In this document: one piece after another, positions 4,409-63,718 of the stretch | How positions within the stretch are numbered: the first letter of the stretch is position 1 | Layout: each line of letters begins with the position of its first letter | NCBI GenBank assembly: GCA_000990355.1 | Contig: LBSX01000003.1 | Span: 21,489 to 85,488, forward strand | Direction: 5' to 3' | Length of the DNA: 64,000 nt | Origin: Candidatus Magasanikbacteria bacterium GW2011_GWC2_37_14 | Lineage (GTDB): Bacteria; Patescibacteriota; Patescibacteriia; Magasanikbacterales; UBA922 | Made by a program: the position numbers and the translations under genes | Notes under the pieces: model-generated | Databases searched by the model: none | Told to the model about the DNA's origin: nothing | Seen by the model: only the letters and a program-made list of their open reading frames with translations

Positions 4409-5689
4409 ATGAGTGAAATAACAAAAGCAATCCAGGCGATTTGCACGGAAAAAGGCCTTTCTTATGAGGCTGTTTTGGAGTCCATTGAAGCAGCTTTGGC
4501 CGCAGCTTATCGCAAGGATTTTGGTAATCGTCAACAAAACATTAAGGTAAAATTTGACCCCGATACTGCCGAGATGAAAGCTTGGGATATTAAAGAAGTG
4601 GTAAAAGATATGGATTTGGAACAGTTGGAAAAAGACCAAGAAGAAATGGCCGTTCGTCGGGAAAAAGCTTATCAAGAAAATCGGGAATTGACTGAAGAAG
4701 AAACCGCTGATTTGTTACACTTTAACCCTAAGACTCAATTAATGTTGACTCCAGCTAAAGAAATAAATAAAAAAGCCAAAGTTGGCGAGACTTTGGAAAT
4801 AGTTTTGGAAGTGCCAGGTGAATTTGGCCGCATGGCAGCCCAAACCGCCAAGCAAGTAATTATTCAACGTTTGCGGGAAGCAGAACGCAATACTGTGTAT
4901 GATGAATTAAAGACCGAAGAAGGGCAATTAATTCAAGGTTTGGTACAACGTCGTGACAAAACTGGCGCCGTAATTATTGATTTAGGAAAAACTACTGGTA
5001 TTGTGCCAATTTCCGAACAAATTCCTCGTGAACAATATCGCACTGGTGTGCGTTTGCGTTTTTATATTGTTTCGGTAAACATGGGTAACCGTGGATTGGA
5101 AATTGTTTTATCGCGTTCGCATGCCAAAATGGTAGAGGCCGTTTTTGTCCAAGAGATTCCCGAAATTACTTCTGGCGTGGTAGTAGTTAAAGGAGTGGCT
5201 CGTGATGCTGGCAATCGTTCCAAAGTAGCAGTATTTACCGAAGATCAGAGTATTGATCCAGTTGGTTCTTGTATTGGCCAGCGTGGCAGTCGCATCAATA
5301 CAATTATCGAAGAATTGGGTGGAGAAAAAATAGATATTATTCAATATAGTGATAAACCAGAAGAATATTTAAAACAAGCCTTATCTCCAGCCAAAATAGA
5401 TAATGTAGAATTGAATGAAAAAACAATGGAAGCCACAGTGAATGTTTCTTCCGAACAATTTTCTTTGGCCATTGGCCGTGGTGGGGTAAATGTACGTTTA
5501 GCCGCCACCCTTACTGGTTGGAAAATAAATGTCGTGGATAATGGCAACGAAGAAAAAGTTGTGAGTAGTGAAGATGACGTCGAAGTGATTGAAGACCTCG
5601 TAAAGGACTCTGGAGAGTCCCACGAGGCAGGAAAAGTTGCTAGTGTGGAAGAAAAAGTAGAGGAAGTTGAAGAGAAAAAAGAGGAATAA
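4409..5689 (+). CDS. nusA: transcription termination/antitermination factor NusA
   Basis: N-terminal domain, S1 and two KH domains (GSCIGQRGSRINTIIEELGGEKIDII; AIGRGGVNVRLAATLTGWKINV); acidic C-terminal tail. Confidence 0.9.
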   Translation: MSEITKAIQAICTEKGLSYEAVLESIEAALAAAYRKDFGNRQQNIKVKFDPDTAEMKAWDIKEVVKDMDLEQLEKDQEEMAVRREKAYQENRELTEEETADLLHFNPKTQLMLTPAKEINKKAKVGETLEIVLEVPGEFGRMAAQTAKQVIIQRLREAERNTVYDELKTEEGQLIQGLVQRRDKTGAVIIDLGKTTGIVPISEQIPREQYRTGVRLRFYIVSVNMGNRGLEIVLSRSHAKMVEAVFVQEIPEITSGVVVVKGVARDAGNRSKVAVFTEDQSIDPVGSCIGQRGSRINTIIEELGGEKIDIIQYSDKPEEYLKQALSPAKIDNVELNEKTMEATVNVSSEQFSLAIGRGGVNVRLAATLTGWKINVVDNGNEEKVVSSEDDVEVIEDLVKDSGESHEAGKVASVEEKVEEVEEKKEE

Positions 5690-6574: not shown

Positions 6575-7209
6575 GCCCTGTAGGGGCATCAGAATAATAG
6601 CCAGGCACTTTAGTGCCTGGAAAGAGATTATTATTTATAATTTAGTCCCGTAGGGACGGCACAAATATGCCAAATACCTTTTCTAATTTATTATTTCACA
6701 TTGTTTTTAGTACCAAAGAAAGAAGAAAATTATTGTCAAAAGAATTGAGAGTTCGATTATTCAAATACATGTCTGGAATAGCCGACAAAAGTAATTTTAA
6801 AATAATAAAATTAGGCGGAATTGATGATCATATCCATTTATTATTTTCATTGAGTCCTGATATGCCTGTAGCAAAAGCAGTACAATTAATAAAAGGCAAC
6901 TCATCTAAATGGTTACGTGAAAATTTTACAGATTTGGATATATTTTCTTGGCAAGTAGGTTATGGCGCGTTTACTGTCAGTAAATCACAGATTGATATTG
7001 TTCAAAAATATATTGCTAACCAAGAAGAGCATCATAAAAAAATGAGTTTTGAAGAAGAATTCGTTGAATTATTAAAAAGGAACAAAATTGATTTTGATTA
7101 TAAATATTTATTTTAGAAATGTGTCGTCCCTATTGGGACTTTTTAAAATAATAAATACATTTTCCAGGCAATAAATTGCCTGGCTACTATCTATCGTCCC
7201 TAACGGGAC
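6575..7209 (+). mobile_element. IS200/IS605-family (or REP/RAYT-like) unit: Y1 HUH transposase gene with three hairpin palindromes on each side
   Basis: Left hairpins: gccctgtaggggc (6575-6587), ccaggcac-ttta-gtgcctgg (6601-6620), gtcccgtagggac (6645-6657). Right hairpins: gtccctattgggac (7126-7139), ccaggcaa-taaa-ttgcctgg (7164-7183), gtccctaacgggac (7196-7209). The middle hairpin carries a compensatory double change (c..g to a..t) that preserves pairing. Confidence 0.6.
6667..7116 (+). CDS. tnpA: IS200-like Y1 (HUH) tyrosine transposase TnpA/RAYT
   Basis: HUH motif HIHLL; N-terminus LLFHIVFSTKERRKLL (cf. YHVVFCTKYRR); catalytic Tyr region SWQVGYGAFTVSKSQIDIVQKYIANQEEHH; 149 aa. Confidence 0.75.
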   Translation: MPNTFSNLLFHIVFSTKERRKLLSKELRVRLFKYMSGIADKSNFKIIKLGGIDDHIHLLFSLSPDMPVAKAVQLIKGNSSKWLRENFTDLDIFSWQVGYGAFTVSKSQIDIVQKYIANQEEHHKKMSFEEEFVELLKRNKIDFDYKYLF

Positions 7210-7229
7210 TTAAATAATGATTTTAAATT

Positions 7230-7952
7230 ATGAACCTCTCAAAAATTTTTCAAGCTTATGGTCTAACCGAAAAACAAGCCAAAGTATATTTGGCTTGTTT
7301 GGAATTGGGTTCGGCCCCCGTGCAAAAGATTGCCGAGAAAGCTGTAGCACCTCGCTCTACGGTTTACGAAGTTTTGGAACATTTAGTACACCTTGGTTTT
7401 ATTAGTACTTTTAATAAAAAGAAAATAAAATATTTTTCTGCCGAAGATCCCCAGCAAATTATTCGTTTGGCAGAAAGCAAAGTTAATACCTTAAAAGATG
7501 CTTTGCCAGAAATGAACGCGATTGTTGGAAAAAGCAGAAAGCGTCCGACTGTGCGTTTTTATCAAGGCAAAGAACAAATGAAAATGGTTTTAGAAGAAAT
7601 GCTTGCCGAGGCTGATGAACTTTTAAGTTTTGCTGCACCTGAGGATTTATTTAGAGAATTAGGCGATTGGTATTTGGATTTTGTAAAAAGAAGAATTAAA
7701 CAAAAAGTTTCTGTGCGTTTGATTGCCACAGATTCCCCGCGGGCGCGTGAACGACAGAAAATTGGTATTGGTGAATTACGCACTGTTAGAATTGTCCCAA
7801 ATATTTTTCCTTATCACAGTAATAAGTGGCTTTGGCAAAACAAAATTGCCATGTTTTCTTTTGCTGGCGACTTAGTTTGTGTGGTAACCGAGAGTAAAGA
7901 ACTGGCCGATATGGAAAGAGCAATGTTTGAGCATTTGTGGAACCGTTGTTAG
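7230..7952 (+). CDS. TrmB-family HTH transcriptional regulator
   Basis: N-terminus LTEKQAKVYLACLELGSAPVQKIAEKAVAPRSTVYEVLEHLVHLGFI, typical of the TrmB winged helix. Confidence 0.6.
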   Translation: MNLSKIFQAYGLTEKQAKVYLACLELGSAPVQKIAEKAVAPRSTVYEVLEHLVHLGFISTFNKKKIKYFSAEDPQQIIRLAESKVNTLKDALPEMNAIVGKSRKRPTVRFYQGKEQMKMVLEEMLAEADELLSFAAPEDLFRELGDWYLDFVKRRIKQKVSVRLIATDSPRARERQKIGIGELRTVRIVPNIFPYHSNKWLWQNKIAMFSFAGDLVCVVTESKELADMERAMFEHLWNRC

Positions 7953-8086: not shown

Positions 8087-8851
8087 ATGTCCCAATTTTT
8101 TACCACTATACTCTATCAACCAATATTTAATGGTTTTGTGGCTTTGTACAACCTTATTCCCGATGTGGGCGTGGTAATTTTGATTGTTACAGTTATCACC
8201 AAACTTATTCTTTATCCACTTAATTCCAAATCAATTAAGTCGCAAAAGGCTTTGAATGATTTGCAACCAAAAATGGAAGAAATTAAGAAAAAGTTTGCTG
8301 GCAATCAACAAACTATCGCGGCCGAAACCATGAAGCTTTACAAAGAAAACAAAGTAAATCCCATGGCTTCGTGTTTACCTCTTTTGGTGCAATTACCAAT
8401 TTTTATTGCCCTTTACTATGTACTCCGTAATGGTTTAACCGATAATAATTTTGAGTTGCTTTATTCTTTTGTAAAAAATCCAGGAACAATCAATACTCTA
8501 AGTTTGGGATTTTTTGATCTTAAGACCAAGAGTATTGTGTTGGCAATTTTGGCCGGTGCAGCTCAGTTTTGGCAAACCAAAATGATGATGCGTCGTCAAC
8601 CACCAAAATCAGCGGGGGCTGGTGGTAAAGATGAGGGTATGATGGCCATGATGAACAAACAAATGTTGTATTTTATGCCGTTTATGACCGTGTTGATTGG
8701 TTTTCAATTACCAGCTGGTTTGTCGTTATATTGGTTTTTGTCTACAGTTTTAACTGCTCTTCAACAAGTGCTGGTGTTTAAAAAACATGATTTAGGTGGT
8801 CCTTCGGCGAATGTTCCTGGTAAAGGAATAATTGAAGGAAAAGTGGAATAA
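8087..8851 (+). CDS. yidC: membrane protein insertase YidC (short Oxa1-like form)
   Basis: Conserved YidC core LYPL..KS..S...L..LQPKMEEIKKKF...Q...ETMKLYKENKVNP...CLPLLVQLPIFIALYYVL; five TM segments. Confidence 0.85.
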   Translation: MSQFFTTILYQPIFNGFVALYNLIPDVGVVILIVTVITKLILYPLNSKSIKSQKALNDLQPKMEEIKKKFAGNQQTIAAETMKLYKENKVNPMASCLPLLVQLPIFIALYYVLRNGLTDNNFELLYSFVKNPGTINTLSLGFFDLKTKSIVLAILAGAAQFWQTKMMMRRQPPKSAGAGGKDEGMMAMMNKQMLYFMPFMTVLIGFQLPAGLSLYWFLSTVLTALQQVLVFKKHDLGGPSANVPGKGIIEGKVE

Positions 8852-10323: not shown

Positions 10324-10394
10324 CTGTCATGCTGAATTTATTTCAGCATCTCTCTTAAAATAAAAAAGATCCTGAAATAAATTCAGGATGACAG
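10324..10394. repeat. repeat family A: double hairpin tgtcatgctgaa-ttta-tttcagcat ... atcctgaa-ataaa-ttcaggatgaca
   Basis: Five copies or arrays in the window (also 43150, 43312, 51286, 51788), always intergenic and immediately upstream of a gene start. Confidence 0.7.
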
Positions 10395-10400
10395 ATTGTT

Positions 10401-25837: not shown

Positions 25838-26194
25838 ATGAGTGATATTGAAAAATGGAGAAAATTAGATGTCTGGTTGAAAGCACATAAATTAGTTGTT
25901 GAAGTTTATAGAATTACAGAAATTTTTCCTAATCATGAACTATATTGTTTGGTCTCGCAGATAAGACGCGCTGCTATTTCTATAGTTGCTAATATTGTGG
26001 AAGGTACAAAAAGGCAAACGTCAAAAGATAGAGTACATTTTTATGTAATGTCAGACACTTCTCTTGAAGAGTTGAAATATTACTTCATTTTAAGTTATAA
26101 TCTACATTATATAGATTTGCAGAAAGCTAGCCTTCTAACTGAGAAGGCTAGAACTGTTGGCCGAATGCTGAACGGACTAATTAAGTGTCAATAA
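25838..26194 (+). CDS. four-helix-bundle protein (23S rRNA-IVS / S23 ribosomal protein family)
   Basis: LDVWLKAHKLVVEVYRITEIFPNHELYCLVSQIRRAAISIVANIVEG; family signature. Confidence 0.7.
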   Translation: MSDIEKWRKLDVWLKAHKLVVEVYRITEIFPNHELYCLVSQIRRAAISIVANIVEGTKRQTSKDRVHFYVMSDTSLEELKYYFILSYNLHYIDLQKASLLTEKARTVGRMLNGLIKCQ

Positions 26195-27387: not shown

Positions 27388-27500
27388 ATTTTCAATGATC
27401 AATTTACAATTTACAATAAATTATCAATTTTCAATTACCATTAGTGATTGAAAATTGTGTCATTGTAAATTTATTGAAAATTGAAAAATGAAAATTGGTA
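27388..27500. repeat. repeat family C: ~110-bp AT-rich palindromic element (arms tcaatttacaatttacaataaatt... / ...aatttattgtaaattg...)
   Basis: Copies at 27388, 31151, 49590/50005 (split by a gene) and 55201; all intergenic and just upstream of gene starts. Confidence 0.65.
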
Positions 27501-27503
27501 ATT

Positions 27504-28196
27504 ATGAACATTATTGAAAAAGAAAAAGCATTGGATTACTTGCGATCTGGTAAAATAATTATTTTTCCTACCGAAACCTCGTACGGTCTTGGTTGTGATG
27601 CGACCAATCAACAAGCAGTAGATAAAATTTTTAAAATAAAAGGCCGTCGTGGTGACAAACCTCTTTTAGTAATAGTGCCGACAATAGAAATGGCCAAAGA
27701 ATATTTGGAGTGGAATGATTTGTTGGAAAAGATTGCGACAAAATATTGGTTTACCCGCCGAAGCCCTAGCGAAGGCGGGCCTGGTCCACTGACTGTGGTG
27801 GGCATGTCATTGCGAGGAAGCCGGTTCGCATCGGCTGACGAAGCAATCCCAATGGGATCGCCACACCCCTTACTGCGTGGGGTTCGCGATGACAGACTCG
27901 CCAGTGGCGTGGTGTCTAAAGATAAAACTATTGCCGTTCGTGTTACTAATGCCGAGATACCAAAATATTTATCCGAACAATTAGGCAGGCCAGTAGTAGC
28001 GACTTCGGCAAATTTGGCAGATCTAGGTGATGTTTACAGTGGCGAAGAGCTAATAAAAATGTATGAAGGACGAGAAATTCAACCAGATGCAATTATTAAT
28101 GCTGGAATTTTACCATCAAATCCACCAACGACGATTGTAAGTGTAGTTGGGGGAGAGTTGAAAGTATTACGGCAGGGTGAAGTGAAAGTCGTTTAA
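27504..28196 (+). CDS. tsaC: L-threonylcarbamoyladenylate synthase TsaC (YrdC/Sua5 family); ATG at 27504 preferred over the TTG at 27495
   Basis: LRSGKIIIFPTETSYGLGCDATN...KIFKIKGRRGDKPLLV...GPGPLTVV; carries the in-frame palindromic insertion. Confidence 0.75.
   Translation: MNIIEKEKALDYLRSGKIIIFPTETSYGLGCDATNQQAVDKIFKIKGRRGDKPLLVIVPTIEMAKEYLEWNDLLEKIATKYWFTRRSPSEGGPGPLTVVGMSLRGSRFASADEAIPMGSPHPLLRGVRDDRLASGVVSKDKTIAVRVTNAEIPKYLSEQLGRPVVATSANLADLGDVYSGEELIKMYEGREIQPDAIINAGILPSNPPTTIVSVVGGELKVLRQGEVKVV
27806..27893. repeat. in-frame GC-rich palindromic element (gtcattgcgaggaagccggttcgcatcggctgacgaagcaatccca ... cgcgatgac) inside tsaC
   Basis: Near-identical to 31577-31681; encodes MSLRGSRFASADEAIPMGSPHPLLRGVRDD between the conserved PGPLTVV and IAVRV segments. 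Confidence 0.65.
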
Positions 28197-43149: not shown

Positions 43150-43227
43150 TGTCATGCTGAACTCGTTTCAGCATCCCTTACTTATTTAATATTGCCAGGG
43201 GATCCTGAAATAAATTCAGGATGACAG
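43150..43227. repeat. repeat family A copy
   Basis: tgtcatgctgaactcgtttcagcat ... gatcctgaaataaattcaggatgaca. Confidence 0.7.
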
Positions 43228-43311
43228 ACAATGTGGATATCTATATTTTTTCTTTAAACAAACAAAAAAATGTGTTATAATGTTTGTAGTTTAGCATGTA
43301 GTGTAAATCAA

Positions 43312-43406
43312 CTGTCATGCTGAATGTAATTGTCATGCTGAACTTGTTTCAGCATCCCGTGAGATCCTGAAATAAATTCAGGATGACAGCCAAGTTCAGG
43401 ATGACA
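43312..43406. repeat. repeat family A copy with extra half-sites (ctgtcatgctgaa; ttcaggatgaca x2)
   Basis: Immediately upstream of ORF 43420, whose ATG lies in a degenerate half-site (gtcATGctcaaattc). Confidence 0.7.
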
Positions 43407-49589: not shown

Positions 49590-50062
49590 ATTATCAGTTT
49601 TCAATTTACAATTTACAATAAATTTTCAATTAAATAATTTTCAATGAATAAAAGTTCTAACAACTATGATTTGGAAGAACGTACAGCAGTATTTAGTGGA
49701 GAGATAATTAAATTTTGTAGAAGTCTAAAAGAAGATAATGTTACTAGACCGTTGATAAATCAGTTAGTGCGTTCTGGAACTAGTATCGGGGCAAATTATT
49801 GTGAAGCTAATAACGCGAGTTCAAAAAAGGATTTTCAAAATAAAATATTTATTTGTAAAAAAGAGGCACAAGAGACCAAATATTGGTTAAGGACACTTTC
49901 TACCTGTTGTCCAGAAGAAGTAGAAAATTTAAGGAAACTTTGGAAGGAAACACAAGAATTATTGATGATATTTCAAAAAATTGTGAATACTTTAAGAAGT
50001 AAATGATAATTGATAAATTGAAAATTTATTGTAAATTGTAAAATGGTTATTGTAAATTAAAC
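49590..50062. repeat. family C palindromic element split by a four-helix-bundle gene (left arm 49590-49646, right arm 50005-50062)
   Basis: The arms match the empty copies C1, C2 and C4; the 4HB ATG sits in the conserved centre aattttcaATG. Confidence 0.6.
49644..50006 (+). CDS. four-helix-bundle protein (23S rRNA-IVS protein family)
   Basis: LVRSGTSIGANYCEANNASSKKDFQNKIFICKKEAQETKYWLRTL. Confidence 0.7.
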   Translation: MNKSSNNYDLEERTAVFSGEIIKFCRSLKEDNVTRPLINQLVRSGTSIGANYCEANNASSKKDFQNKIFICKKEAQETKYWLRTLSTCCPEEVENLRKLWKETQELLMIFQKIVNTLRSK

Positions 50063-51285: not shown

Positions 51286-51342
51286 TGTCATGCTGAACTA
51301 GTTTCAGCATCCCAGGAGATCCTGAAATAAATTCAGGATGAC
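51286..51342. repeat. repeat family A copy
   Basis: ctgtcatgctgaactagtttcagcatcccaggagatcctgaaataaattcaggatgaca. Confidence 0.65.
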
Positions 51343-51350
51343 AAAACAAT

Positions 51351-51787: not shown

Positions 51788-51925
51788 TGTCATCCTGAAT
51801 TTATTTCAGGATCTCCTGTTAGCATTAAAAGTGTTGGGGATGCTGAAATGGTACTTGTCCTGAATTTATTTCAGGATTCAGCATGACAATTGCATTCAGG
51901 ATGACAACCAAGTTCAGCATGACAA
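51788..51925. repeat. array of family A half-sites (tgtcatcctgaa-tttat-ttcaggat; atgctgaa; gtcctgaatttatttcaggat; ttcagcatgaca x2; ttcaggatgaca)
   Basis: Six or more copies of the 12-nt half-site TGTCATSCTGAA or its reverse complement within 140 bp, upstream of the VirB4 genes. Confidence 0.65.
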
Positions 51926-55975: not shown

Positions 55976-56004
55976 TTGACAGAGAATTAATTTTGAGGTA
56001 AGAT
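55976..56004 (+). promoter_or_regulatory. candidate promoter TTGACA-17-TAAGAT upstream of the tRNA pair
   Basis: ttgaca gagaattaattttgagg taagat, about 15 nt before tRNA 1. Confidence 0.35.
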
Positions 56005-56018
56005 AAATTGCAACTTAT

Positions 56019-56105
56019 GGAGAGATGGCTGAGTGGTCGATAGCAGCAGTTTACTAAACTGCAGTCCCCGTAAGGGGACCTAGGGTTCGAATCCCTATCT
56101 CTCCG
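56019..56105 (+). tRNA. type-II tRNA, Ser-like (G73, long variable arm) with anticodon loop TTACTAA, i.e. anticodon ACU by canonical numbering; no encoded CCA
   Basis: Hand-folded: acceptor GGAGAGA / TCTCTCC, D-stem GCT / AGC with an 11-nt loop, anticodon stem GCAGT / ACTGC, 18-nt variable hairpin GTCCCCGTAAGGGGAC, T-arm TAGGG-TTCGAAT-CCCTA. Confidence 0.7.
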
Positions 56106-56158
56106 CCTTCGCGCGCCGAAGCGCGCTTCGGCGGACAAAGTCCGCTAAATTAGACTTT

Positions 56159-56246
56159 GGAGAGGTGTCAGAGCGGTCTATCGTCCAGCTTTGCTAAAGC
56201 TGCAGGGGGCAACCCCTCGCGGGTTCGAATCCCGCCCTCTCCGCCA
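56159..56246 (+). tRNA. tRNA-Ser (anticodon GCU), CCA encoded
   Basis: Acceptor GGAGAGG / CCTCTCC, anticodon stem CAGCT / AGCTG with loop TTGCTAA, variable hairpin GGGGGCAACCCC, T-loop GGTTCGAATCC, then G-CCA. Confidence 0.85.
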
Positions 56247-56407
56247 GGACAATTTAGTATCGGATAGATTCATCTAGCCGAGACTGAAGGGCGACCCTAG
56301 TGTATGATTATTCCTTTTGGTAGAATAAAAGTCGGTATAAAAAGCCGTCTTTTATTTATCCCAAACAAGTGGTACAATATATTCAATGTATTTAAATAAA
56401 TGATAAT

Positions 56408-56605
56408 ATGTCGACGATTGGTAAAAATATAAAAAATTTTAGAGAATTGAAAAAAATATCGCAGGATCGTCTTTCTAAACTTGCTGATATTTCATCTAAT
56501 ACAGTGGCGAAGCTAGAGTTAGATGATAGTACCAATCCAACTATTGATACTTTACAAAAGATAGCTGAAGCACTTGGTGTTAAGGTAGAAGATCTCATAA
56601 AATAA
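56408..56605 (+). CDS. XRE-family (Cro/CI-type) HTH transcriptional regulator
   Basis: IKNFRELKKISQDRLSKLADISSNTVAKLE...IDTLQKIAEALGV. Confidence 0.7.
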   Translation: MSTIGKNIKNFRELKKISQDRLSKLADISSNTVAKLELDDSTNPTIDTLQKIAEALGVKVEDLIK

Positions 56606-56608
56606 TTT

Positions 56609-59305
56609 ATGATCAATTTAGTAACCTTACAAGAAAATCTTGAAAATCTCAGTCAAAACTTTTCTAAAGAATCGTTTATTTTTGATTTGCTTTCTGTGTA
56701 TGAGTTACCCAAAAGCACTATTTCTTTATTGTCGAAAAGTCCTTCAAAATTATCTGGCAAAGAAGATCAGATTATTTTAAAAAACAAAGTACTTTTCCAC
56801 ATAACTACCCTTGAGGAAGATGAGCATGTTGCGATTGATGCACTACAAAAAGATAAGTCTTCATACAAGTTCAACCCGCGATTTATTATCGTTACAGACT
56901 TCGTAACCTTTTTAGCAATTGATACAAAAACAAAAGAAACACTTGATATTCAAATTGAGGATCTTGGCAAGCACTACGCTTTTTTCTTGCCATGGTGTGG
57001 TATGGAAAAATCTCAGCATGTAAATGAGAACCCTGCTGATATTCGTGCCGCCTACAAAATGGATAAGTTGTATCAAGCAATTGTGAACGACAATACTGAA
57101 TACTATAAAAACAACAGCCATGATCTAAATATATTTCTTTCACGCCTTTTGTTCTGTTTCTTTGCTGAGGATACTGGAATATTCCCTAAAACAGGAATGT
57201 TTACTAACTCTGTGACATCACACACCCATGAAAATGGCAACGAAATGGGTATTTATTTTTCAACTTTTTTTGATGTTTTAAATACTAAAGATTCTGAACG
57301 ATCAAAATATGCTTCACATTTCTTAGAATTTCCATATGTAAACGGAGGTCTTTTTGAAAGTAAGATTAAATTACCTACATTTACGGCAAGTTCACGAAAA
57401 CTGATTATTGAATGTGGAAAGTTGGACTGGAGTTCAATTAACCCAGATATTTTTGGATCTATGATTCAAGCTGTTGTTCATCCTGGCCAGAGAGAGAACC
57501 TTGGGATGCACTACACATCCGTTCCAAATATAATGAAAGTTATTGAACCTCTCTTTTTAAATAATCTCTATGAGGAAGTAAAAAATTCAAAGAATGATAC
57601 TAAAAAACTTGTAAAGCTCCGTGAACGAATCGCAAAAATTAAGATATTTGACCCCGCTTGTGGATCAGGTAATTTTCTTATTATTTCTTACAAAGAATTA
57701 TGTAAATTAGAGATTGAAATAATTAGATTACTAAATTTACAAAATTCATTTGCTACACAAGAAGGTTGGAATAGTACAATGTCAGGTATTACCTTAAATA
57801 ATTTTTATGGTATAGAGATAGACGATTTTGCACATGAAATAGCAAAGCTGTCTCTATATTTAGCTCAGCATCAAATAAACATTAAATTCCAAGAAGAGTT
57901 CGGAAAACTTAAACCAACCCTTCCTCTTAAAGAGAGCGGTAGAATCGTATATGCAAATGCAACTAGAATTGACTGGGATGAGGTTTGTCTTAAGAAAGAC
58001 CGTTTTGGGAATGAATATGAAATATATATTATCGGGAACCCACCATATTTAGGTTCAAAAAATCAGGATATTGAGCAAAAAAATGATATGGCTATTACTT
58101 TTAAGGGGGTGGAAGATTATAAAAAGTTAGATTATGTTGCTTGTTGGTTTTACATTGCATCTTCGTATATTCAAAATACAAATGTACAGTATGCTTTTGT
58201 GACTACCAACTCTATTACACAAGGTGAACAAGTATCCCTACTTTGGAACCTTATTTTAAGCAGAAATCAAGAAATTTTTCTTGCGCACCAATCATTCAAA
58301 TGGACAAATAATGCTAAGGGAAATGCAGGAGTTGCTGTTGTGGTTATTGGAATTAGAAATATTAATGATTCTGAAAAGTATCTTTATAACCAGGATCACA
58401 GACAGCTAGTAAAAAACATAAGTCCATATTTAACCAATACTTCAAACATTTTTATTTTACCACGAAACAATTCTTTAGGAAATTTTCCCTTAATGATTAC
58501 AGGTAGTGGTCCTGGTGATGACGGAAATTTGATTTTAGATATAGATGAAAAAGAAAAACTGATTATACAAAATAATAAGATTGAAAGTTTCTTAAAAAAA
58601 TATATTGGAGCGCAAGAATTTATTGGTAATACATATAGATATTGTATTTATATTACACAAGAAAATGTGAGTGCGGCTTATAAAATAACTCAATTAGTAC
58701 AACGATTTGAAAAAGTAAAAGCATTCAGATTGGCAAGTAAAAAAGAAGGAACCAAAAAAAAGGCCGTTACACCACATTTTTTTGATGAAGATCGATACAG
58801 GGATGATGAATTTATTTTAGTTCCTAAGGTAGGTTCTGAAAGACGAGAATATCTCCCAATTGGGTATTTTGATGGAACATTTCTTCCTTCTAACACGACA
58901 AAAGTTATTTATAATGCTAAACCTTGGCTTTTCGGTATCTTGTCTTCTAAAATGCACATTGTTTGGGTAAGAGCAGTTGCCGGAAGGTTAAAAACAGATA
59001 TGCAATATTCAAACACACTATGCTATAACACTTTCCCATTTCCGAATGTAACAGAAAAGCAAAAAGAGTCTCTCTCAAGTCATGTGTACAATATTTTAGA
59101 AGAACGAGAGAGGTATCCAGAAAAATCAATGGCAGAACTGTATGATCCAGATAAGATGCCTAATGGTTTAAGAGAAGCTCATAGATACTTAGATCAAGCC
59201 ATAGATCAGATATACCGAGGTAAACCGTTTGAAAGTGACGATGACCGACTAGCTCACTTGTTCAAACTTTACGAAGAGATGATTATTAGAAAAAATAACG
59301 AATAA
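56609..59305 (+). CDS. MmeI-family type IIL restriction-modification enzyme (N-terminal endonuclease, gamma-class N6-adenine methyltransferase, C-terminal TRD in one polypeptide)
   Basis: Motif order FDPACGSGNFL (I) then IIGNPPYLG (IV). Long colinear similarity to MmeI as recalled: LLFCFFAEDT, FPYVNGGLF, YGIEIDDFAHEIAKLSLYLAQHQ, VTTNSITQGEQVSLLW, FKWTN. Size 898 aa (MmeI is 919 aa). Confidence 0.75.
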   Translation: MINLVTLQENLENLSQNFSKESFIFDLLSVYELPKSTISLLSKSPSKLSGKEDQIILKNKVLFHITTLEEDEHVAIDALQKDKSSYKFNPRFIIVTDFVTFLAIDTKTKETLDIQIEDLGKHYAFFLPWCGMEKSQHVNENPADIRAAYKMDKLYQAIVNDNTEYYKNNSHDLNIFLSRLLFCFFAEDTGIFPKTGMFTNSVTSHTHENGNEMGIYFSTFFDVLNTKDSERSKYASHFLEFPYVNGGLFESKIKLPTFTASSRKLIIECGKLDWSSINPDIFGSMIQAVVHPGQRENLGMHYTSVPNIMKVIEPLFLNNLYEEVKNSKNDTKKLVKLRERIAKIKIFDPACGSGNFLIISYKELCKLEIEIIRLLNLQNSFATQEGWNSTMSGITLNNFYGIEIDDFAHEIAKLSLYLAQHQINIKFQEEFGKLKPTLPLKESGRIVYANATRIDWDEVCLKKDRFGNEYEIYIIGNPPYLGSKNQDIEQKNDMAITFKGVEDYKKLDYVACWFYIASSYIQNTNVQYAFVTTNSITQGEQVSLLWNLILSRNQEIFLAHQSFKWTNNAKGNAGVAVVVIGIRNINDSEKYLYNQDHRQLVKNISPYLTNTSNIFILPRNNSLGNFPLMITGSGPGDDGNLILDIDEKEKLIIQNNKIESFLKKYIGAQEFIGNTYRYCIYITQENVSAAYKITQLVQRFEKVKAFRLASKKEGTKKKAVTPHFFDEDRYRDDEFILVPKVGSERREYLPIGYFDGTFLPSNTTKVIYNAKPWLFGILSSKMHIVWVRAVAGRLKTDMQYSNTLCYNTFPFPNVTEKQKESLSSHVYNILEERERYPEKSMAELYDPDKMPNGLREAHRYLDQAIDQIYRGKPFESDDDRLAHLFKLYEEMIIRKNNE

Positions 59306-59309
59306 TTTT

Positions 59310-61247
59310 ATGAAAACCATTCAAGTCGCAGAAGCAACATACGCACAAACTGGAGAAAGTACCAAAATCAATAGTTTTGGTATGCGTGAAATGCAGGCAA
59401 AAGCATTCGAAAAAAGAACTGCGCAGTACCTCCTTTTGAAAGCTCCTCCAGCATCAGGAAAATCTCGAGCTTTAATGTTCCTTGCTTTGGACAAGCTCAC
59501 TAATCAAGGTATCAAGAAAGTAATTGTAGCTGTTCCTGAAAAATCAATCGGCGGATCTTTCAGCGAAACTAATTTAACTGATAGTGGATTTTTCGCAGAC
59601 TGGAAACCAAATGATAATTATAATCTTTGTACCCCTGGCCTTGATAATGCCAAAGGAAAGGTTGAAGCGTTTAAGAACTTTATGGAAAACAATGAGAAGA
59701 TTCTTATCTGTACCCACGCTACATTTCGTTTTGCTTGTGAACAAATTGAAGATACAAAATTTAATGACATACTCATTGCTATAGATGAATTCCACCATGT
59801 TTCTGCTGATAAAGAGAGTAGTATTTTAGGACGTGTATTGCATGGGATAATGACTAACTCAAATGCTCACGTTATTGCGATGACTGGATCATATTTCCGA
59901 GGTGACGGTGTCGCTGTTTTGTTACCAGAAGACGAGGCTAAATTTCAGAAAGTAACATATAACTATTATCAACAATTGAATGGTTACACCTATTTAAAGA
60001 CTTTGGGCATCGGATATCACTTTTATCAAGGCAGGTACACATCAGCAATCGCTGAGGTTTTGGATACGAATAAGAAAACGATTTTACATATTCCAAACGT
60101 AAATTCTGGGGAATCTACAAAAGACAAACTTAATGAGGTTGATTTGATTTTAGATATTATTGGTGAAGTAGATCATCAAGATCATGAGACTGGAGTTATT
60201 TATGTGAAGCGTGATGGTGATGGGAAAATTCTAAAAGTAGCAAACCTTGTTGATGATTCAGTAGATCGAGATAAAATTTCAAACTATCTTCGTACTATGA
60301 GAAAAGAAGATGACATGGATATTATTATTGCTCTTGGTATGGCAAAAGAAGGTTTTGACTGGCCATATTGTGAACATGCTTTAACTGTTGGTTACCGTAG
60401 TTCACTTACTGAAATTATTCAGATCATTGGTCGCTGTACTCGTGATAGTGCAAATAAGACTCATTCACAGTTTACAAACCTTATCGCACAGCCCGATGCA
60501 AAAGATGGTGAAGTTAAGGTGTCTGTAAACAATATGCTTAAAGCAATAACTTGTTCTTTGCTTATGGAGCAAGTCATGGCCCCTCACTATAACTTCAAAC
60601 CACGCTTTCCAAATGATGATACTGCATTTACTCCAGGTGAAATTAAAATAAATGGTTTTAAAGCACCAAGCACTGATCGTGTACGAGAGATTATTGAATC
60701 TGATATCAACGACCTTAAAGCTTCAATTCTTCAAGATGACCAGATGATTAAGGCATTGCCTGGAAATGTTGACCCAGAGGTAATAAACAAGGTAATGATT
60801 CCAAAGATTATTCAAATCAAATATCCTGATCTCACAGATCTTGAAGTTGAAGAAGTTCGTCAGCATGTAGTAGTTGATTCTGTAATTAAAAATGGAGAAA
60901 TAAAAGAAGTTGGAGATAAGAAATTTGTTCGTATGGCAGGTCAATTTGTTAATATTGACGATCTTAATATCGACCTTATCGACCGCATTAATCCATTTCA
61001 AGAAGCTTTTGAGATTCTTTCAAAGTCAGTTACATCAAATATTCTTAAGGTTATACAAGATACAATTGATTCATCACGAATTGAAATGACACCTGAAGAG
61101 GTTAAGATTCTATGGCCTAAAGCCAAGGAGTTCACCATACAAACGGGTCGAAAGCCCGACATTTCATCATCTGATCCTCTTGAGAAGCGTTTGGCAGAAG
61201 CCGTTCTTTATTTGAAGAAACTTAAGGCTGAACAAATTCAAAATTAA
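59310..61247 (+). CDS. SF2 (DEAH-type) helicase/ATPase, co-operonic with the MmeI-like gene
   Basis: Motif I APPASGKSRA, motif II IDEFHH, motif III MTGSYF, motif VI QIIGRCTR; 4-nt gap to the upstream gene. Confidence 0.7.
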   Translation: MKTIQVAEATYAQTGESTKINSFGMREMQAKAFEKRTAQYLLLKAPPASGKSRALMFLALDKLTNQGIKKVIVAVPEKSIGGSFSETNLTDSGFFADWKPNDNYNLCTPGLDNAKGKVEAFKNFMENNEKILICTHATFRFACEQIEDTKFNDILIAIDEFHHVSADKESSILGRVLHGIMTNSNAHVIAMTGSYFRGDGVAVLLPEDEAKFQKVTYNYYQQLNGYTYLKTLGIGYHFYQGRYTSAIAEVLDTNKKTILHIPNVNSGESTKDKLNEVDLILDIIGEVDHQDHETGVIYVKRDGDGKILKVANLVDDSVDRDKISNYLRTMRKEDDMDIIIALGMAKEGFDWPYCEHALTVGYRSSLTEIIQIIGRCTRDSANKTHSQFTNLIAQPDAKDGEVKVSVNNMLKAITCSLLMEQVMAPHYNFKPRFPNDDTAFTPGEIKINGFKAPSTDRVREIIESDINDLKASILQDDQMIKALPGNVDPEVINKVMIPKIIQIKYPDLTDLEVEEVRQHVVVDSVIKNGEIKEVGDKKFVRMAGQFVNIDDLNIDLIDRINPFQEAFEILSKSVTSNILKVIQDTIDSSRIEMTPEEVKILWPKAKEFTIQTGRKPDISSSDPLEKRLAEAVLYLKKLKAEQIQN

Positions 61248-61248
61248 T

Positions 61249-62403
61249 ATGGATAAAAAAGATTTACTAGATTTAATAGATGATGATGATTTAGGACTTC
61301 TTGATATAGAGAAGAAAACTGTTTCGGTTACGCCGGATGATCGATTATCAGAATCATTTATGGAAATAAATGAGTTCTTTTCATTACATAATATCGAGCC
61401 AAAAAGTGGTGGAGACATTCATGAACATAAACTAGCATCACGTCTCAAACATATTAGAGAAAACAAAGAACAAAGAGACTTTCTTAGTAAGTACGATACT
61501 CATGGTCTGTTAAAAATCGAGAATAAAGACATCGATACAGTAAATGATATTTTTGAAGACGATGATTTAGATCTTCTTTCAATTGAAGATAGTTCTGTTT
61601 TTAATATAAAGAATGTGCCAGAAATAAAACAAGATCGTTCTGATCCTGACTTTGTTGCACAGAGAAAGATTTGTGCTGATTTTGATCAGTATGAACATTT
61701 GTTCGCACAGGTTCAAAGAGATTTGAAAAATGGCACAAAAAATCTCGCGACTTTTGTAGAAAATGAAATGAAACAGGGGGATTTCTTTGTTCTTAGTGGT
61801 GTTTTAATATATCTAGAAAAAATCTATGATCCATACCGAGGTAATAGTCAAAAAATAAATAGAAGAACTCGCTGTATATATGAGAATGGTACCGAATCAA
61901 GTGTACTTTTACGTTCGCTAGGAAAGAGATTGTCTGATGTAGGTTACGCCATAAAAGATAATGTAAATGTTGTAAGTGTTGAAGATGGCGATTCAGAAAC
62001 CGGTTATATTTATGTTCTCAAGTCACTAAGTAACAATCCTAGAATTGCTAGCACAAAAAACCTTTTTAAAATTGGCTTCTCAACCACTAGTGTTGAAGAA
62101 CGTATAAAGAACGCGCAACAGGATCCTACTTATCTTATGTCCCCAGTTTCTATTGTTGCTACCTACAGATGTTTTAATATGAATCCTCAAAGATTTGAGA
62201 GATTAGTACATCGTTTCTTTGGTGATTCATGTCTAGATATTGAGATCACTGACAACAACGGAAAAAACTACAATCCAAAAGAGTGGTTTATTGCCCCAAT
62301 TAGGGTGATTGGGAATGTTATTGAATTAATTATCAAAGGAGAGATTGTTAATTACTTTTATGATAAAAACGCAGAATCAATTATAAAGATTTCTAATCCT
62401 TAA
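61249..62403 (+). CDS. T5orf172/MUG113 (GIY-YIG-related) domain protein with an acidic repeat N-terminus
   Basis: GYIYVLKS...LFKIGFSTTSVEERIKN...PVSIVATY matches the T5orf172 core; N-terminal acidic repeats DLLDLIDDDDLGLLDIE / IFEDDDLDLLSIED; 1-nt gap after the helicase gene. Confidence 0.6.
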   Translation: MDKKDLLDLIDDDDLGLLDIEKKTVSVTPDDRLSESFMEINEFFSLHNIEPKSGGDIHEHKLASRLKHIRENKEQRDFLSKYDTHGLLKIENKDIDTVNDIFEDDDLDLLSIEDSSVFNIKNVPEIKQDRSDPDFVAQRKICADFDQYEHLFAQVQRDLKNGTKNLATFVENEMKQGDFFVLSGVLIYLEKIYDPYRGNSQKINRRTRCIYENGTESSVLLRSLGKRLSDVGYAIKDNVNVVSVEDGDSETGYIYVLKSLSNNPRIASTKNLFKIGFSTTSVEERIKNAQQDPTYLMSPVSIVATYRCFNMNPQRFERLVHRFFGDSCLDIEITDNNGKNYNPKEWFIAPIRVIGNVIELIIKGEIVNYFYDKNAESIIKISNP

Positions 62404-63718
62404 GTAGTGTTAATATTTTATCTTTATAAACAATTCTTGATCTCAAATTTCCAAGCAGTTCTCTCTTCTCGCTAACCGATCCCTCCTTTAAAATATACTT
62501 AGCATAGTTCCGTATATCTGTGTCTTCTCTATTCTTCATTTTATCAGTACTACCAAGTACTGACCTTTGAAATATATTAAATCTGGCAATTTCATTTTCT
62601 AGCTTTTGTCGCATTCCAAGTTCGTTAATATTTACTTTATCCAATATCTTTAATAGCTCAATTATTAAATCTTCCTCTCGTATATACTTATTTTTACAAT
62701 TTCTGTCTCTCGCTCTTGAACATGAATAGTAAATATATCTTGCATGTGTGCCATCTTTTAATTGTTTATATTTTTCTTCAGCAGAAATTCCACTGCCACA
62801 ATACCCACAGGTAAATAACTTAGTAAATGAGAACTCGTGATTTTCTCGAACTATCTGGTCTCTTTTTAATTGGGCTCTAGCTTTTTCAAATAATTCTTGG
62901 GTTATTAGTGGTTCATGTTTTCCTGTATACCAATTTCCACTTCCTCTTGGACTTTCAAATACTCCATAATAAAAACTGTTATTAATTATTCTATATACCC
63001 CAGCCAATGTCAGCGGTTTATTGCCACGAGTATAAAAATTTAGTTCATGCTTTAGCCAATTATATATTTTTCTGCCCGAATAATGTTCATTAGCAACTTT
63101 TTCAAACATTTTTTTAATTGCTGGAGCACGCAGTGGATCAACTATCACTTGGCATTTCTTATCCATTAGTTTTTGATTTAGATATCCAAGTGGTGCCACA
63201 CCTGGCCACAATCCCATTTCTACTCTAGTTCTTAAACCTCGTTTTACATTTATTCCTCTATTATCATTTTCAAGTTTGGCTTGCGATCCCAATATCATCA
63301 ACAGGAACTTTTCGTTTGGATTATTACCAAATCTCTGTCCGAACGTCCTTATTTCTACAAGAGCGCCCGAATCCATTAAATCTACTATTTTCCCTAAGTC
63401 CCCAGCATTTCTGGAAATTCTGTCTGGTGCCCAAGTCAAAATACCATTGAATTTACCTTGTTTTAATTCCTCTATGATTTCATTGAAAATTGGCCTTTGA
63501 CCAGTTTCTTTGGCCGAGTGGGATTCTCTTTTCATTGTAACCACATCTAAATTCTCCTTTTCTGCCAGCTGAAGCATCTCCTTAATTTGGCTATCTATGG
63601 AGAGAACCTGCCTTTCCTCTGATTCTGTTGATTTTCTTGCGTAAAGGCAGTATTTTACCTTAATTTGGGTCGTTATTTTGCCCGTAGACCCCGTGGGCAT
63701 TAGTGCGATATTCATCAT
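62393..63718 (-). CDS. large serine recombinase (resolvase catalytic domain + recombinase domain + zinc ribbon)
   Basis: YARKSTESEERQVLSIDSQ (catalytic Ser region), GILTWAPDRISRN, C-terminal CGYCGSGISAEE ... YYSC. Confidence 0.8.
   Translation of the reverse strand: MMNIALMPTGSTGKITTQIKVKYCLYARKSTESEERQVLSIDSQIKEMLQLAEKENLDVVTMKRESHSAKETGQRPIFNEIIEELKQGKFNGILTWAPDRISRNAGDLGKIVDLMDSGALVEIRTFGQRFGNNPNEKFLLMILGSQAKLENDNRGINVKRGLRTRVEMGLWPGVAPLGYLNQKLMDKKCQVIVDPLRAPAIKKMFEKVANEHYSGRKIYNWLKHELNFYTRGNKPLTLAGVYRIINNSFYYGVFESPRGSGNWYTGKHEPLITQELFEKARAQLKRDQIVRENHEFSFTKLFTCGYCGSGISAEEKYKQLKDGTHARYIYYSCSRARDRNCKNKYIREEDLIIELLKILDKVNINELGMRQKLENEIARFNIFQRSVLGSTDKMKNREDTDIRNYAKYILKEGSVSEKRELLGNLRSRIVYKDKILTLLKD

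Follow-up and report, generated by a model that had tools for sequence, protein, structure and literature searches.

A serine tRNA with an ACU anticodon, carried by Patescibacteria-type genomes and phage tRNA arrays, is a candidate dedicated reader of AGU

Why would a bacterium that has an ordinary tRNA-Ser(GCU) also carry a serine tRNA whose anticodon begins with A? The question is raised by a 64,000-nucleotide stretch of Candidatus Magasanikbacteria bacterium GW2011_GWC2_37_14 (contig LBSX01000003.1, positions 21,489 to 85,488), here called the window, in which two tRNA-Ser genes lie in tandem, the first with the anticodon ACU (tRNA 1) and the second with GCU (tRNA 2). The scarcity of A-starting anticodons beyond tRNA-Arg(ACG) is a long-standing puzzle in the evolution of tRNA sets. 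According to one review, whose survey was made without the phyla of the candidate phyla radiation (CPR), A34 is universally missing from the Ser/Arg split box, and phage tRNAs lack the same anticodons (PMC8007984). A survey of GtRNAdb found ANN tRNAs of split boxes only sporadically and always together with the GNN isoacceptor, with lineage-level retention solely of the four-fold-box tRNAs Leu(AAG) and Thr(AGU) (a 2026 preprint). Our reading, to which we assign a probability of roughly 0.6, is that tRNA 1 is a functional, expressed serine tRNA of an old and widespread Ser(ACU) lineage, and that it serves as a dedicated reader of AGU.

The two genes are the only tRNA genes that ARAGORN calls in the window, Ser(act) and Ser(gct), both on the + strand. 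Both match the Rfam model RF00005 over their full length (gathering score 29), tRNA 1 with 57.8 bits and tRNA 2 with 39.8 bits, so that the tRNA with the unexpected anticodon outscores its canonical neighbor. Read directly from the sequence, the anticodon stem of tRNA 1, GCAGT/ACTGC (56046-56050 / 56058-56062), encloses the loop TTACTAA (56051-56057), with ACT at 56053-56055; the covariance model neither moves the anticodon nor scores tRNA 1 as a pseudogene, and the initial annotation, which had read it as ACU, was right on this point. The variable arm of tRNA 1 is long and helical (CCCC-GTAA-GGGG), and its 3' end continues from G73 (56105) into CC-T, so that no CCA is encoded. The loop of tRNA 2 is TTGCTAA, followed by G73 and an encoded CCA. 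Type-II Leu and Tyr tRNAs have A73, unlike the G73 of Ser tRNAs. With a model score above threshold and a long variable-arm helix combined with G73, tRNA 1 has the marks of a type-II Ser tRNA, and ARAGORN, RF00005 and the sequence itself agree with the earlier description of both genes, including the assignment of tRNA 2 as Ser(GCU).

An odd anticodon can also be a sign of decay. The initial annotation allowed that tRNA 1 might be a decaying duplicate, that is, a pseudogene with a chance G34-to-A mutation, and both the missing CCA and the harm expected of A34 in a split codon box speak for this. We scanned one genome per species for the body of the tRNA, with the anticodon entered as NNN. Six other species genomes matched, and all six carry ACT. 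Counting the window, the carriers of Ser(ACU) comprise seven species-level genomes, together with many metagenome loci, with GC contents of 0.33-0.48; the tRNA is retained across many species of an AT-rich lineage and is not sporadic. In the species genomes, Ser(GCU) adjoins Ser(ACU) where the contig permits, often with Ser(UGA) as well, and where the variable arm and the T stem vary between copies, the changes are compensatory. The closest named carriers of the same tRNA are metagenome-assembled genomes (MAGs) assigned to Candidatus Magasanikiibacteriota and to the ‘Patescibacteria group’. Three more MAGs with the same tRNA bear the label ‘uncultured Gammaproteobacteria’, which we suspect to be wrong.

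We then searched with a generic pattern (D-loop GAGNGG, loop YTACTAA, T-loop GGTTCRAATCC) that matches all known copies and nothing else locally; the type-II ACU-loop pattern occurs once in the window, with 0.00 matches expected from 100 shuffles. At least 120 loci in metagenome contigs and at least 120 in IMG/VR viral contigs matched, and among the matches listed ARAGORN calls Ser(act) in 117 of 120 metagenome loci and in all 120 viral loci. After deduplication, the family holds at least 203 different sequences, which group into 78 clusters at 85% identity. The pattern itself fixes the anticodon loop and the T-loop, and the stem statistics are independent of it: positions in the acceptor, D, anticodon and T stems are paired in 98-100% of the 203 sequences (85% for pair 27-43), with between three and six kinds of base pair at most stem positions. 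Of the 203, 189 (93%) have G73 and every one has A37, and the variable region is 14-23 nt long. By group, CCA is encoded in 1 of 7, 63 of 118 and 61 of 120. Because encoded CCA varies freely in the family, its absence from tRNA 1 carries no meaning. The Ser(ACU) gene is intact, conserved and under structural selection.

The relation between the two anticodons can be followed in 22 cellular-type loci, which hold few tRNAs each and contain both Ser(ACU) and Ser(GCU). In all 22, the ACU tRNA is most closely related to another tRNA with ACU, in no case to one with GCU. Mean identity is 0.80 between ACU tRNAs of different loci and 0.68 between ACU and GCU tRNAs within a locus, and same-locus identity ranges from 58 to 81% in related loci. 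The surroundings recur as well: nine loci have a ComF homologue close to Ser(ACU), and in the window a ComF-like gene is directly upstream of the tRNA pair. As the nearest relative is always ACU and the neighborhood is conserved, Ser(ACU) was not made repeatedly by G34-to-A mutation; it has been inherited, as an old isoacceptor separate from the GCU lineage, and by the same evidence tRNA 1 and tRNA 2 are not recent duplicates. This separate ancestry, the covariance score above that of tRNA 2, the conserved anticodon amid compensatory changes, the nearly perfect stems of the family and the uninformative CCA all argue against decay. On sequence grounds we regard the pseudogene explanation as refuted and give it almost no weight.

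Ser(ACU) is also common in phage-type arrays, which hold up to 27 tRNAs per locus. The lineage coexists with Ser(GCU) in Magasanikiibacteriota and other Patescibacteria-type genomes, and in phage arrays it usually occurs without it: Ser(ACU) and Ser(GCU) are found together in 3 of 120 viral loci among the matches listed. Arg(UCU) is represented by 33 genes across the 120 viral loci listed, and it lies beside Ser(ACU) in L012 and L017 too (L followed by a number denotes a compared locus, a contig region, in this analysis). There is moderate evidence that the arrays really are phage. They belong to the viral class of IMG/VR, and PHROGs gave weak confirmation, with a DNA ligase in one array and endonuclease-like matches in another; the ‘viral’ contig L248 looks like a chromosomal island. 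A cultured phage carries the gene as well. Rhizobium phage RHph_TM30 (MN988521.1) has an annotated tRNA-Ser(act), with which ARAGORN agrees, and thus a tRNA-Ser(ACU) is already present, unremarked, in at least one GenBank phage record. Most of the other cultured-phage BLAST matches to Ser(ACU) queries proved to be GCU or UGA tRNAs, and RHph_TM30 was the only ACU among the anticodons read. Its tRNA is about 90% identical to one viral cluster over query positions 1-41. Like tRNA 1 it is a natural type-II Ser tRNA with ACU; unlike tRNA 1 it is phage-borne and stands alone, with Ser(GCU) absent from its vicinity, and its sequence is not a near relative of the window tRNA.

Other rare anticodons were seen near Ser(ACU). 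A tRNA-Ile(UAU) accompanies it in L090 (288), L123 (12149) and L214 (1195), two cellular-type loci and one viral locus; a review lists the UAU anticodon as lost in prokaryotes (PMC8007984). Single array calls include Ile(AAU), Tyr(AUA), Gly(ACC), Phe(AAA), Thr(AGU) and Leu(AAG). Genes for ClpB-like AAA+ ATPases, 42-45% identical to the one in the window, occur near the Ser(ACU) arrays of the phage-like loci L060, L080, L052, L114 and L184.

What would a Ser(ACU) tRNA read? AGU is the top Ser codon in the core genes of the window, where AGT stands at 27.3 and AGC at 7.4 per 1000 codons, and it is used in nearly every gene; the AGT share of all Ser codons is 24% for cellular-type loci and 34% for viral arrays. 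AGA reaches 8.7 per 1000 codons in core genes. The most highly conserved genes, those for the ClpB-like ATPase, NusA and YidC (59-940, 4409-5689 and 8087-8851), contain no AGA or AGG at all, their Arg codons being CGN. AGA is used freely in less conserved genes and in those of the island that follows the tRNA pair; AGA/AGG use as Arg amounts to 20.5 per 1000 codons in the island, and AGA rises to 50 per 1000 in the recombinase gene. An alignment with E. coli orthologues (RF1, NusA, YidC and ClpB) was tried for the meaning of AGA and set aside, as AGA is so rare in these conserved genes that it yielded two aligned codons and had no power. We turned instead to codon-level alignments of homologous genes from different loci that carry Ser(ACU). 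Of 141 aligned AGA codons, 70 face Arg (49 of them CGN), 27 face Lys and 2 face Ser; AGG behaves alike, and AGU aligns mainly with Ser codons and small polar residues. These alignments indicate a standard code in Ser(ACU)-bearing sequences, with AGA and AGG read as Arg and AGU as Ser. A Codetta screen of more than 250,000 genomes found no AGR-to-Ser change in bacteria (PMC8629427).

The reading of AGA bears directly on the chemistry of A34. If A34 were deaminated to inosine (I34) by TadA or a relaxed relative, tRNA 1 would read AGU and AGC and, weakly, AGA, as an equivalent of a G34 tRNA with some risk of inserting Ser at AGA. The initial annotation had raised I34 reading of AGU, AGC and AGA, and had stated that A34 is otherwise confined to Arg(ACG). 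The second statement was too strong, as Leu(AAG) and Thr(AGU) are known exceptions, and the first is disfavored by our data. A UACG core (UAMG in S. pyogenes) is common to the known tRNA substrates of TadA and to its mRNA editing sites, and G36 is invariant in all documented cases (PMC11472039); the loop of tRNA 1, UUACUAA, has U36 instead. Nor is the A-ending codon of the box synonymous, with AGA aligned to Arg or Lys in 97 of 141 instances. As AGA and AGG are still Arg, inosine reading AGA would cause missense errors, and I34 would give no decoding gain over G34. That cellular loci retain Ser(GCU) beside Ser(ACU) likewise speaks for a division of labor between them. In the relative L022 there is a tRNA-Arg(GCG) gene without an intron; lineages that make no use of Arg(ACG) typically have this isoacceptor (PMC8007984), which is a suggestive but thin further hint. 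Collectively, we consider deamination to inosine unlikely.

Several observations nevertheless weigh against a strictly AGU-reading tRNA, and the first of them favor inosine. A single base separates the family loop, YUACUAA, from the TadA consensus, YUACGAA. An engineered split-box Phe(AAA) became deaminated to I34 in E. coli (bioRxiv 10.64898/2026.05.15.725136), and TadA may therefore accept a wider range of substrates than the UACG motif suggests. Some ten array loci hold both Ser(ACU) and Arg(ACG), implying TadA-bearing hosts, and the usual replacement of Ser(GCU) by Ser(ACU) in phage arrays would fit coverage of AGU and AGC together. Neither the window nor the 1.9 Mb of loci fetched gave a TadA-like match, but these are genome fragments and the result is uninformative on this point. 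A signal of AGU-specific codon co-adaptation is absent, the AGY T/C ratio being mid-range among NNY pairs. Finally, G34 already reads AGU, and the advantage of adding a tRNA with A34 is hence hard to see.

Despite these points, we favor the AGU reader. An unmodified ACU anticodon in E. coli gave 9.4% at AGU and 0.36% at AGG, with AGC and AGA below detection (PMC11066159). The standard code, the UACU loop, this intrinsic specificity for U and the demand for AGU together favor Watson-Crick reading of AGU. We infer the expression, serylation, A34 modification state and AGU-only reading of tRNA 1 as follows. The promoter-like site ahead of tRNA 1 (Table 1) is presumably used in vivo. Seryl-tRNA synthetase (SerRS) recognizes the long variable arm and G73 and does not read the anticodon; it would accordingly be expected to charge tRNA 1 through these features, whatever its anticodon. 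A34 would stay adenosine, or at least would not become a base that reads A-ending codons, and would pair in Watson-Crick geometry with the U of AGU. Ser(ACU) would then be a dedicated AGU reader, with Ser(GCU) covering AGC and, by wobble, AGU, and the Arg tRNAs would keep AGA and AGG. tRNAs that read ANN codons, among them the two Ser tRNAs of the window, are expected to carry N6-threonylcarbamoyladenosine at position 37 (t6A37), and A37 of tRNA 1, which follows U36, is presumably so modified; the window contains a Sua5/TsaC gene (Table 1). For the proposition that Ser(ACU) is a split-box A34 tRNA of natural and ancient origin, widespread across Patescibacteria and common in phage arrays, with an unmodified or newly modified A34 that is strictly U-specific, we would put the odds at about even.

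A different possibility is that bulk decoding is not the main role of Ser(ACU), which could instead resist anticodon nucleases or toxins that recognize the GCU loop, or serve outside the ribosome, for example in donating seryl groups. It is known that phage tRNAs can escape the anticodon nucleases of the host through changes in the anticodon loop, and Ser(ACU) is abundant in phage arrays, is redundant with Ser(GCU) in cells and lacks the AGU-specific codon signal noted above, all of which would fit. Set against this, no nuclease with tRNA-Ser(GCU) as its target is known to us, and the analysis identified none. The tRNA keeps all elongator features (U33, A37, a standard T-loop, a 7-bp acceptor stem and G73), and with AGU as the top Ser codon, decoding is the simplest function. 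We hold a non-decoding role to be improbable, more so than inosine.

How does a dedicated AGU reader compare with tRNAs already described? Ser(ACU) is an ordinary Ser tRNA body with an anticodon from a class thought to be excluded, retained at the scale of a lineage. It shares with bacterial tRNA-Ser(GCU), which it adjoins in cellular loci, the type-II fold, G73, a loop with U33 and A37, CU at positions 35-36, the amino acid and the codon box; it differs in having A34 rather than G34, in its separate lineage and in a predicted reading of AGU only rather than AGC and AGU. Thr(AGU) of Mycoplasma/Mollicutes and Leuconostocaceae and Leu(AAG) of Lactobacillales/Streptococcus are also natural, retained non-Arg A34 tRNAs of AT-rich bacteria. 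Thr(AGU) in Mycoplasma carries an unmodified A34 (PMC11066159), and Leu(AAG) is deaminated by an adapted TadA (PMC11472039). Both belong to four-fold boxes, in which a misread codon still gives the correct amino acid, and both replace the GNN isoacceptor. The box of Ser(ACU) is split between Ser and Arg, and in cells the GNN isoacceptor is present as well. The same anticodon has been placed in engineered E. coli tRNAs, which are active in translation and strongly U-specific (Schmitt et al. 2024, PMC11066159; preprint 10.64898/2026.05.15.725136); these are artificial, built on an orthogonal Tyr backbone or as native point mutants, and a natural version was assumed to be absent. We found no description in the literature of a natural tRNA-Ser(ACU) lineage or of a CPR anticodon inventory, and a paper on Patescibacteria tRNAs gives per-amino-acid counts only.

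The window itself is a chromosomal stretch of low GC content (about 36%) from a Patescibacteria-type bacterium, and the contigs that are 100% identical to it are of groundwater metagenome origin. Its genes include those for the ClpB-like ATPase, NusA, YidC, a release factor, Sua5/TsaC and a KsgA-like protein, along with two giant surface-protein open reading frames (ORFs) and a PrgI / TraC-like / VirB4-like module. The features around the tRNA pair are collected in Table 1.

Table 1. Coordinates of the tRNA pair, its flanking elements, the first island genes and the Sua5/TsaC gene in the window.
Feature	Position	Strand	Remarks
Sua5/YrdC (TsaC) gene	27495-28196		First enzyme of t6A37 synthesis
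Promoter-like site, sigma-70-type	55976-56004	+	TTGACA, 17-nt spacer, TAAGAT; 10/12 consensus matches; ends 15 nt before tRNA 1
tRNA-Ser(ACU), tRNA 1	56019-56107	+	Type-II; anticodon 56053-56055; G73 at 56105; CCA not encoded
GC-rich spacer / 3' trailer between the tRNAs	56108-56158	+	Inverted repeat and motif CTTCGGCGGAC-AAA-GTCCGC
tRNA-Ser(GCU), tRNA 2	56159-56246	+	Canonical AGY reader; anticodon 56193-56195; G73; CCA encoded
Junction region	56247-56302	+	56247-56268 identical to L001, in which it is the 5' part of a degenerate tRNA-like remnant; 56269-56302 loosely similar; beyond, unrelated
XRE/Cro-type helix-turn-helix protein, control-protein-like	56408-56605	+	First island gene
MmeI-family type IIG restriction-modification enzyme	56609-59305	+	PADLOC REase_MTase_IIG, E = 8.5e-301
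ResIII/DEAD-type helicase	59310-61247	+	
T5orf172 / MUG113 (GIY-YIG-like) domain protein	61249-62403	+	
Large serine recombinase	62393-63718	-	Resolvase + Recombinase + Zn-ribbon

The spacer between the two tRNAs contains an inverted repeat (56107-56123 / 56124-56140) and the motif CTTCGGCGGAC-AAA-GTCCGC, which begins at 56126. The trailer motif is also found 3' of Ser tRNAs in L005 and L008, there downstream of Ser(GCU). A GC-rich trailer of this kind recurs after CCA-less Ser tRNAs as GCC-TTCGC, a hairpin and then CTTCGGCGGAC-NNN-GTCCGC; the segment GGCGGA within it complements the 3' acceptor strand (TCCGCC) of the tRNA. The trailer could be a processing or regulatory element. In the cellular-type loci L248, L049, L090, L067 and L012, another motif, GAGACGAGAGGATTCGAA, follows a terminator-like hairpin after Ser(GCU), and the approximately 100 nt 3' of Ser(ACU) are likewise conserved within this group.

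Downstream of the pair lies the island whose codon usage was considered above. The initial annotation had noted that foreign-looking defense genes follow the tRNAs, and their domain content and a codon usage unlike that of the core genes bear this out: a recombinase-bearing block of foreign composition abuts a tRNA gene. The recombinase is internal to the island, which, judging from identical contigs, runs at least 5 kb past the window end. There it encodes a CD-NTase (SMODS / CD_NTase_C, resembling those of CBASS, the cyclic-oligonucleotide-based antiphage signaling system), two small ORFs, and an SNase-domain nuclease together with a ParB_N + N6_N4 methylase fusion (L256 17247-18869; L257 7666-13116).

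Did a tRNA-Ser serve as the attachment (att) site for this island, as the initial annotation proposed? The strain contig L001, 99.8% identical to the window, matches it through both tRNAs and 22 nt more and diverges at 56268/56269, so that variable DNA begins 22 nt after tRNA 2. This lends the proposal partial support, as does the recurrence of recombinases near Ser(ACU): homologues 68-70% identical to the island recombinase lie 4-6 kb from Ser(ACU), in convergent orientation and with different cargo between, in L248 and L032. The break, however, lies outside both tRNA-Ser genes, within a degenerate tRNA-like remnant, of which only L001 has the full length. We considered this L001 element as a true third tRNA and rejected it, as it has no Rfam match, is called by ARAGORN at the 80% threshold only and has a fold z-score of -0.73; it is possibly a tRNA remnant. 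L001, the close relative compared for an empty site, carries other DNA related to the island: its last 141 nt (7185-7325) correspond to the 5' region of the MmeI-family gene (window 56650-56790), inverted and about 200 nt after the tRNAs. As 141 is the assembler k-mer, the inverted piece may be either a real, recombinase-driven rearrangement or an artefact of the assembly graph.

The search proposed earlier for a direct repeat of the tRNA 3' end beyond the recombinase found neither such a repeat nor a distal att site within 13 kb (the window and the L257 extension, to the equivalent of 69305), a span that does not reach the distal island end. The L001-type 3' piece was not seen at the far side of the island in the window or the 5 kb extension. 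An att definition from comparing L032 and L248 with loci of near-identical tRNAs was also tried and abandoned, since the flanks are too diverged and only the tRNA and about 100 nt align. We therefore treat 56247-56302 as a candidate island boundary or att region. Like tRNA-gene-associated islands, this one has defense genes and a recombinase directly 3' of a tRNA cluster and a deviant codon usage; unlike them, it has an internal serine recombinase, no tRNA 3' repeat and a breakpoint in the remnant after tRNA 2. The DNA beside the Ser tRNA cluster behaves as a hotspot of variation, with a crossover that appears to lie in neither tRNA-Ser.

Elsewhere in the window, an IS200-like (Y1) transposase (6667-7116) is followed immediately by a match to the Rfam small RNA (sRNA) family Acido-Lenti-1 (7164-7210), at 38.8 bits against a gathering score of 37, which may be the structured end of the insertion sequence (IS) element rather than that sRNA. 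Two genes of the 23S_rRNA_IVP family lie at 25838-26194 and 49644-50006, the first of which also matches a bAvd-like family. bAvd is an accessory protein of diversity-generating retroelements; no reverse transcriptase was found among the window ORFs scanned. A repeat of 30-65 nt, found through secondary BLAST matches of L001, occurs in both orientations (10367-10396, 43166-43388, 51313-51343 and 51788-51818), and one inverted pair brackets the PrgI-like gene.

For the evolution of tRNA sets, Ser(ACU) is a lineage-level exception to the stated universal absence of its anticodon, and one in which AGA and AGG stay Arg. If A34 is unmodified, a split-box A34 tRNA would be tolerated, and perhaps favored, for a heavily used U-ending codon. 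If the tRNA is indeed a U-specific reader, it would overturn the textbook view that ANN anticodons in split boxes are universally missing and would offer a natural system in which to study the avoidance of A34. Annotation pipelines may flag Ser(ACU) genes as suspect. Phage arrays in which Ser(ACU) replaces Ser(GCU) may in turn inform on codon strategy or on the evasion of tRNA-targeting defenses.

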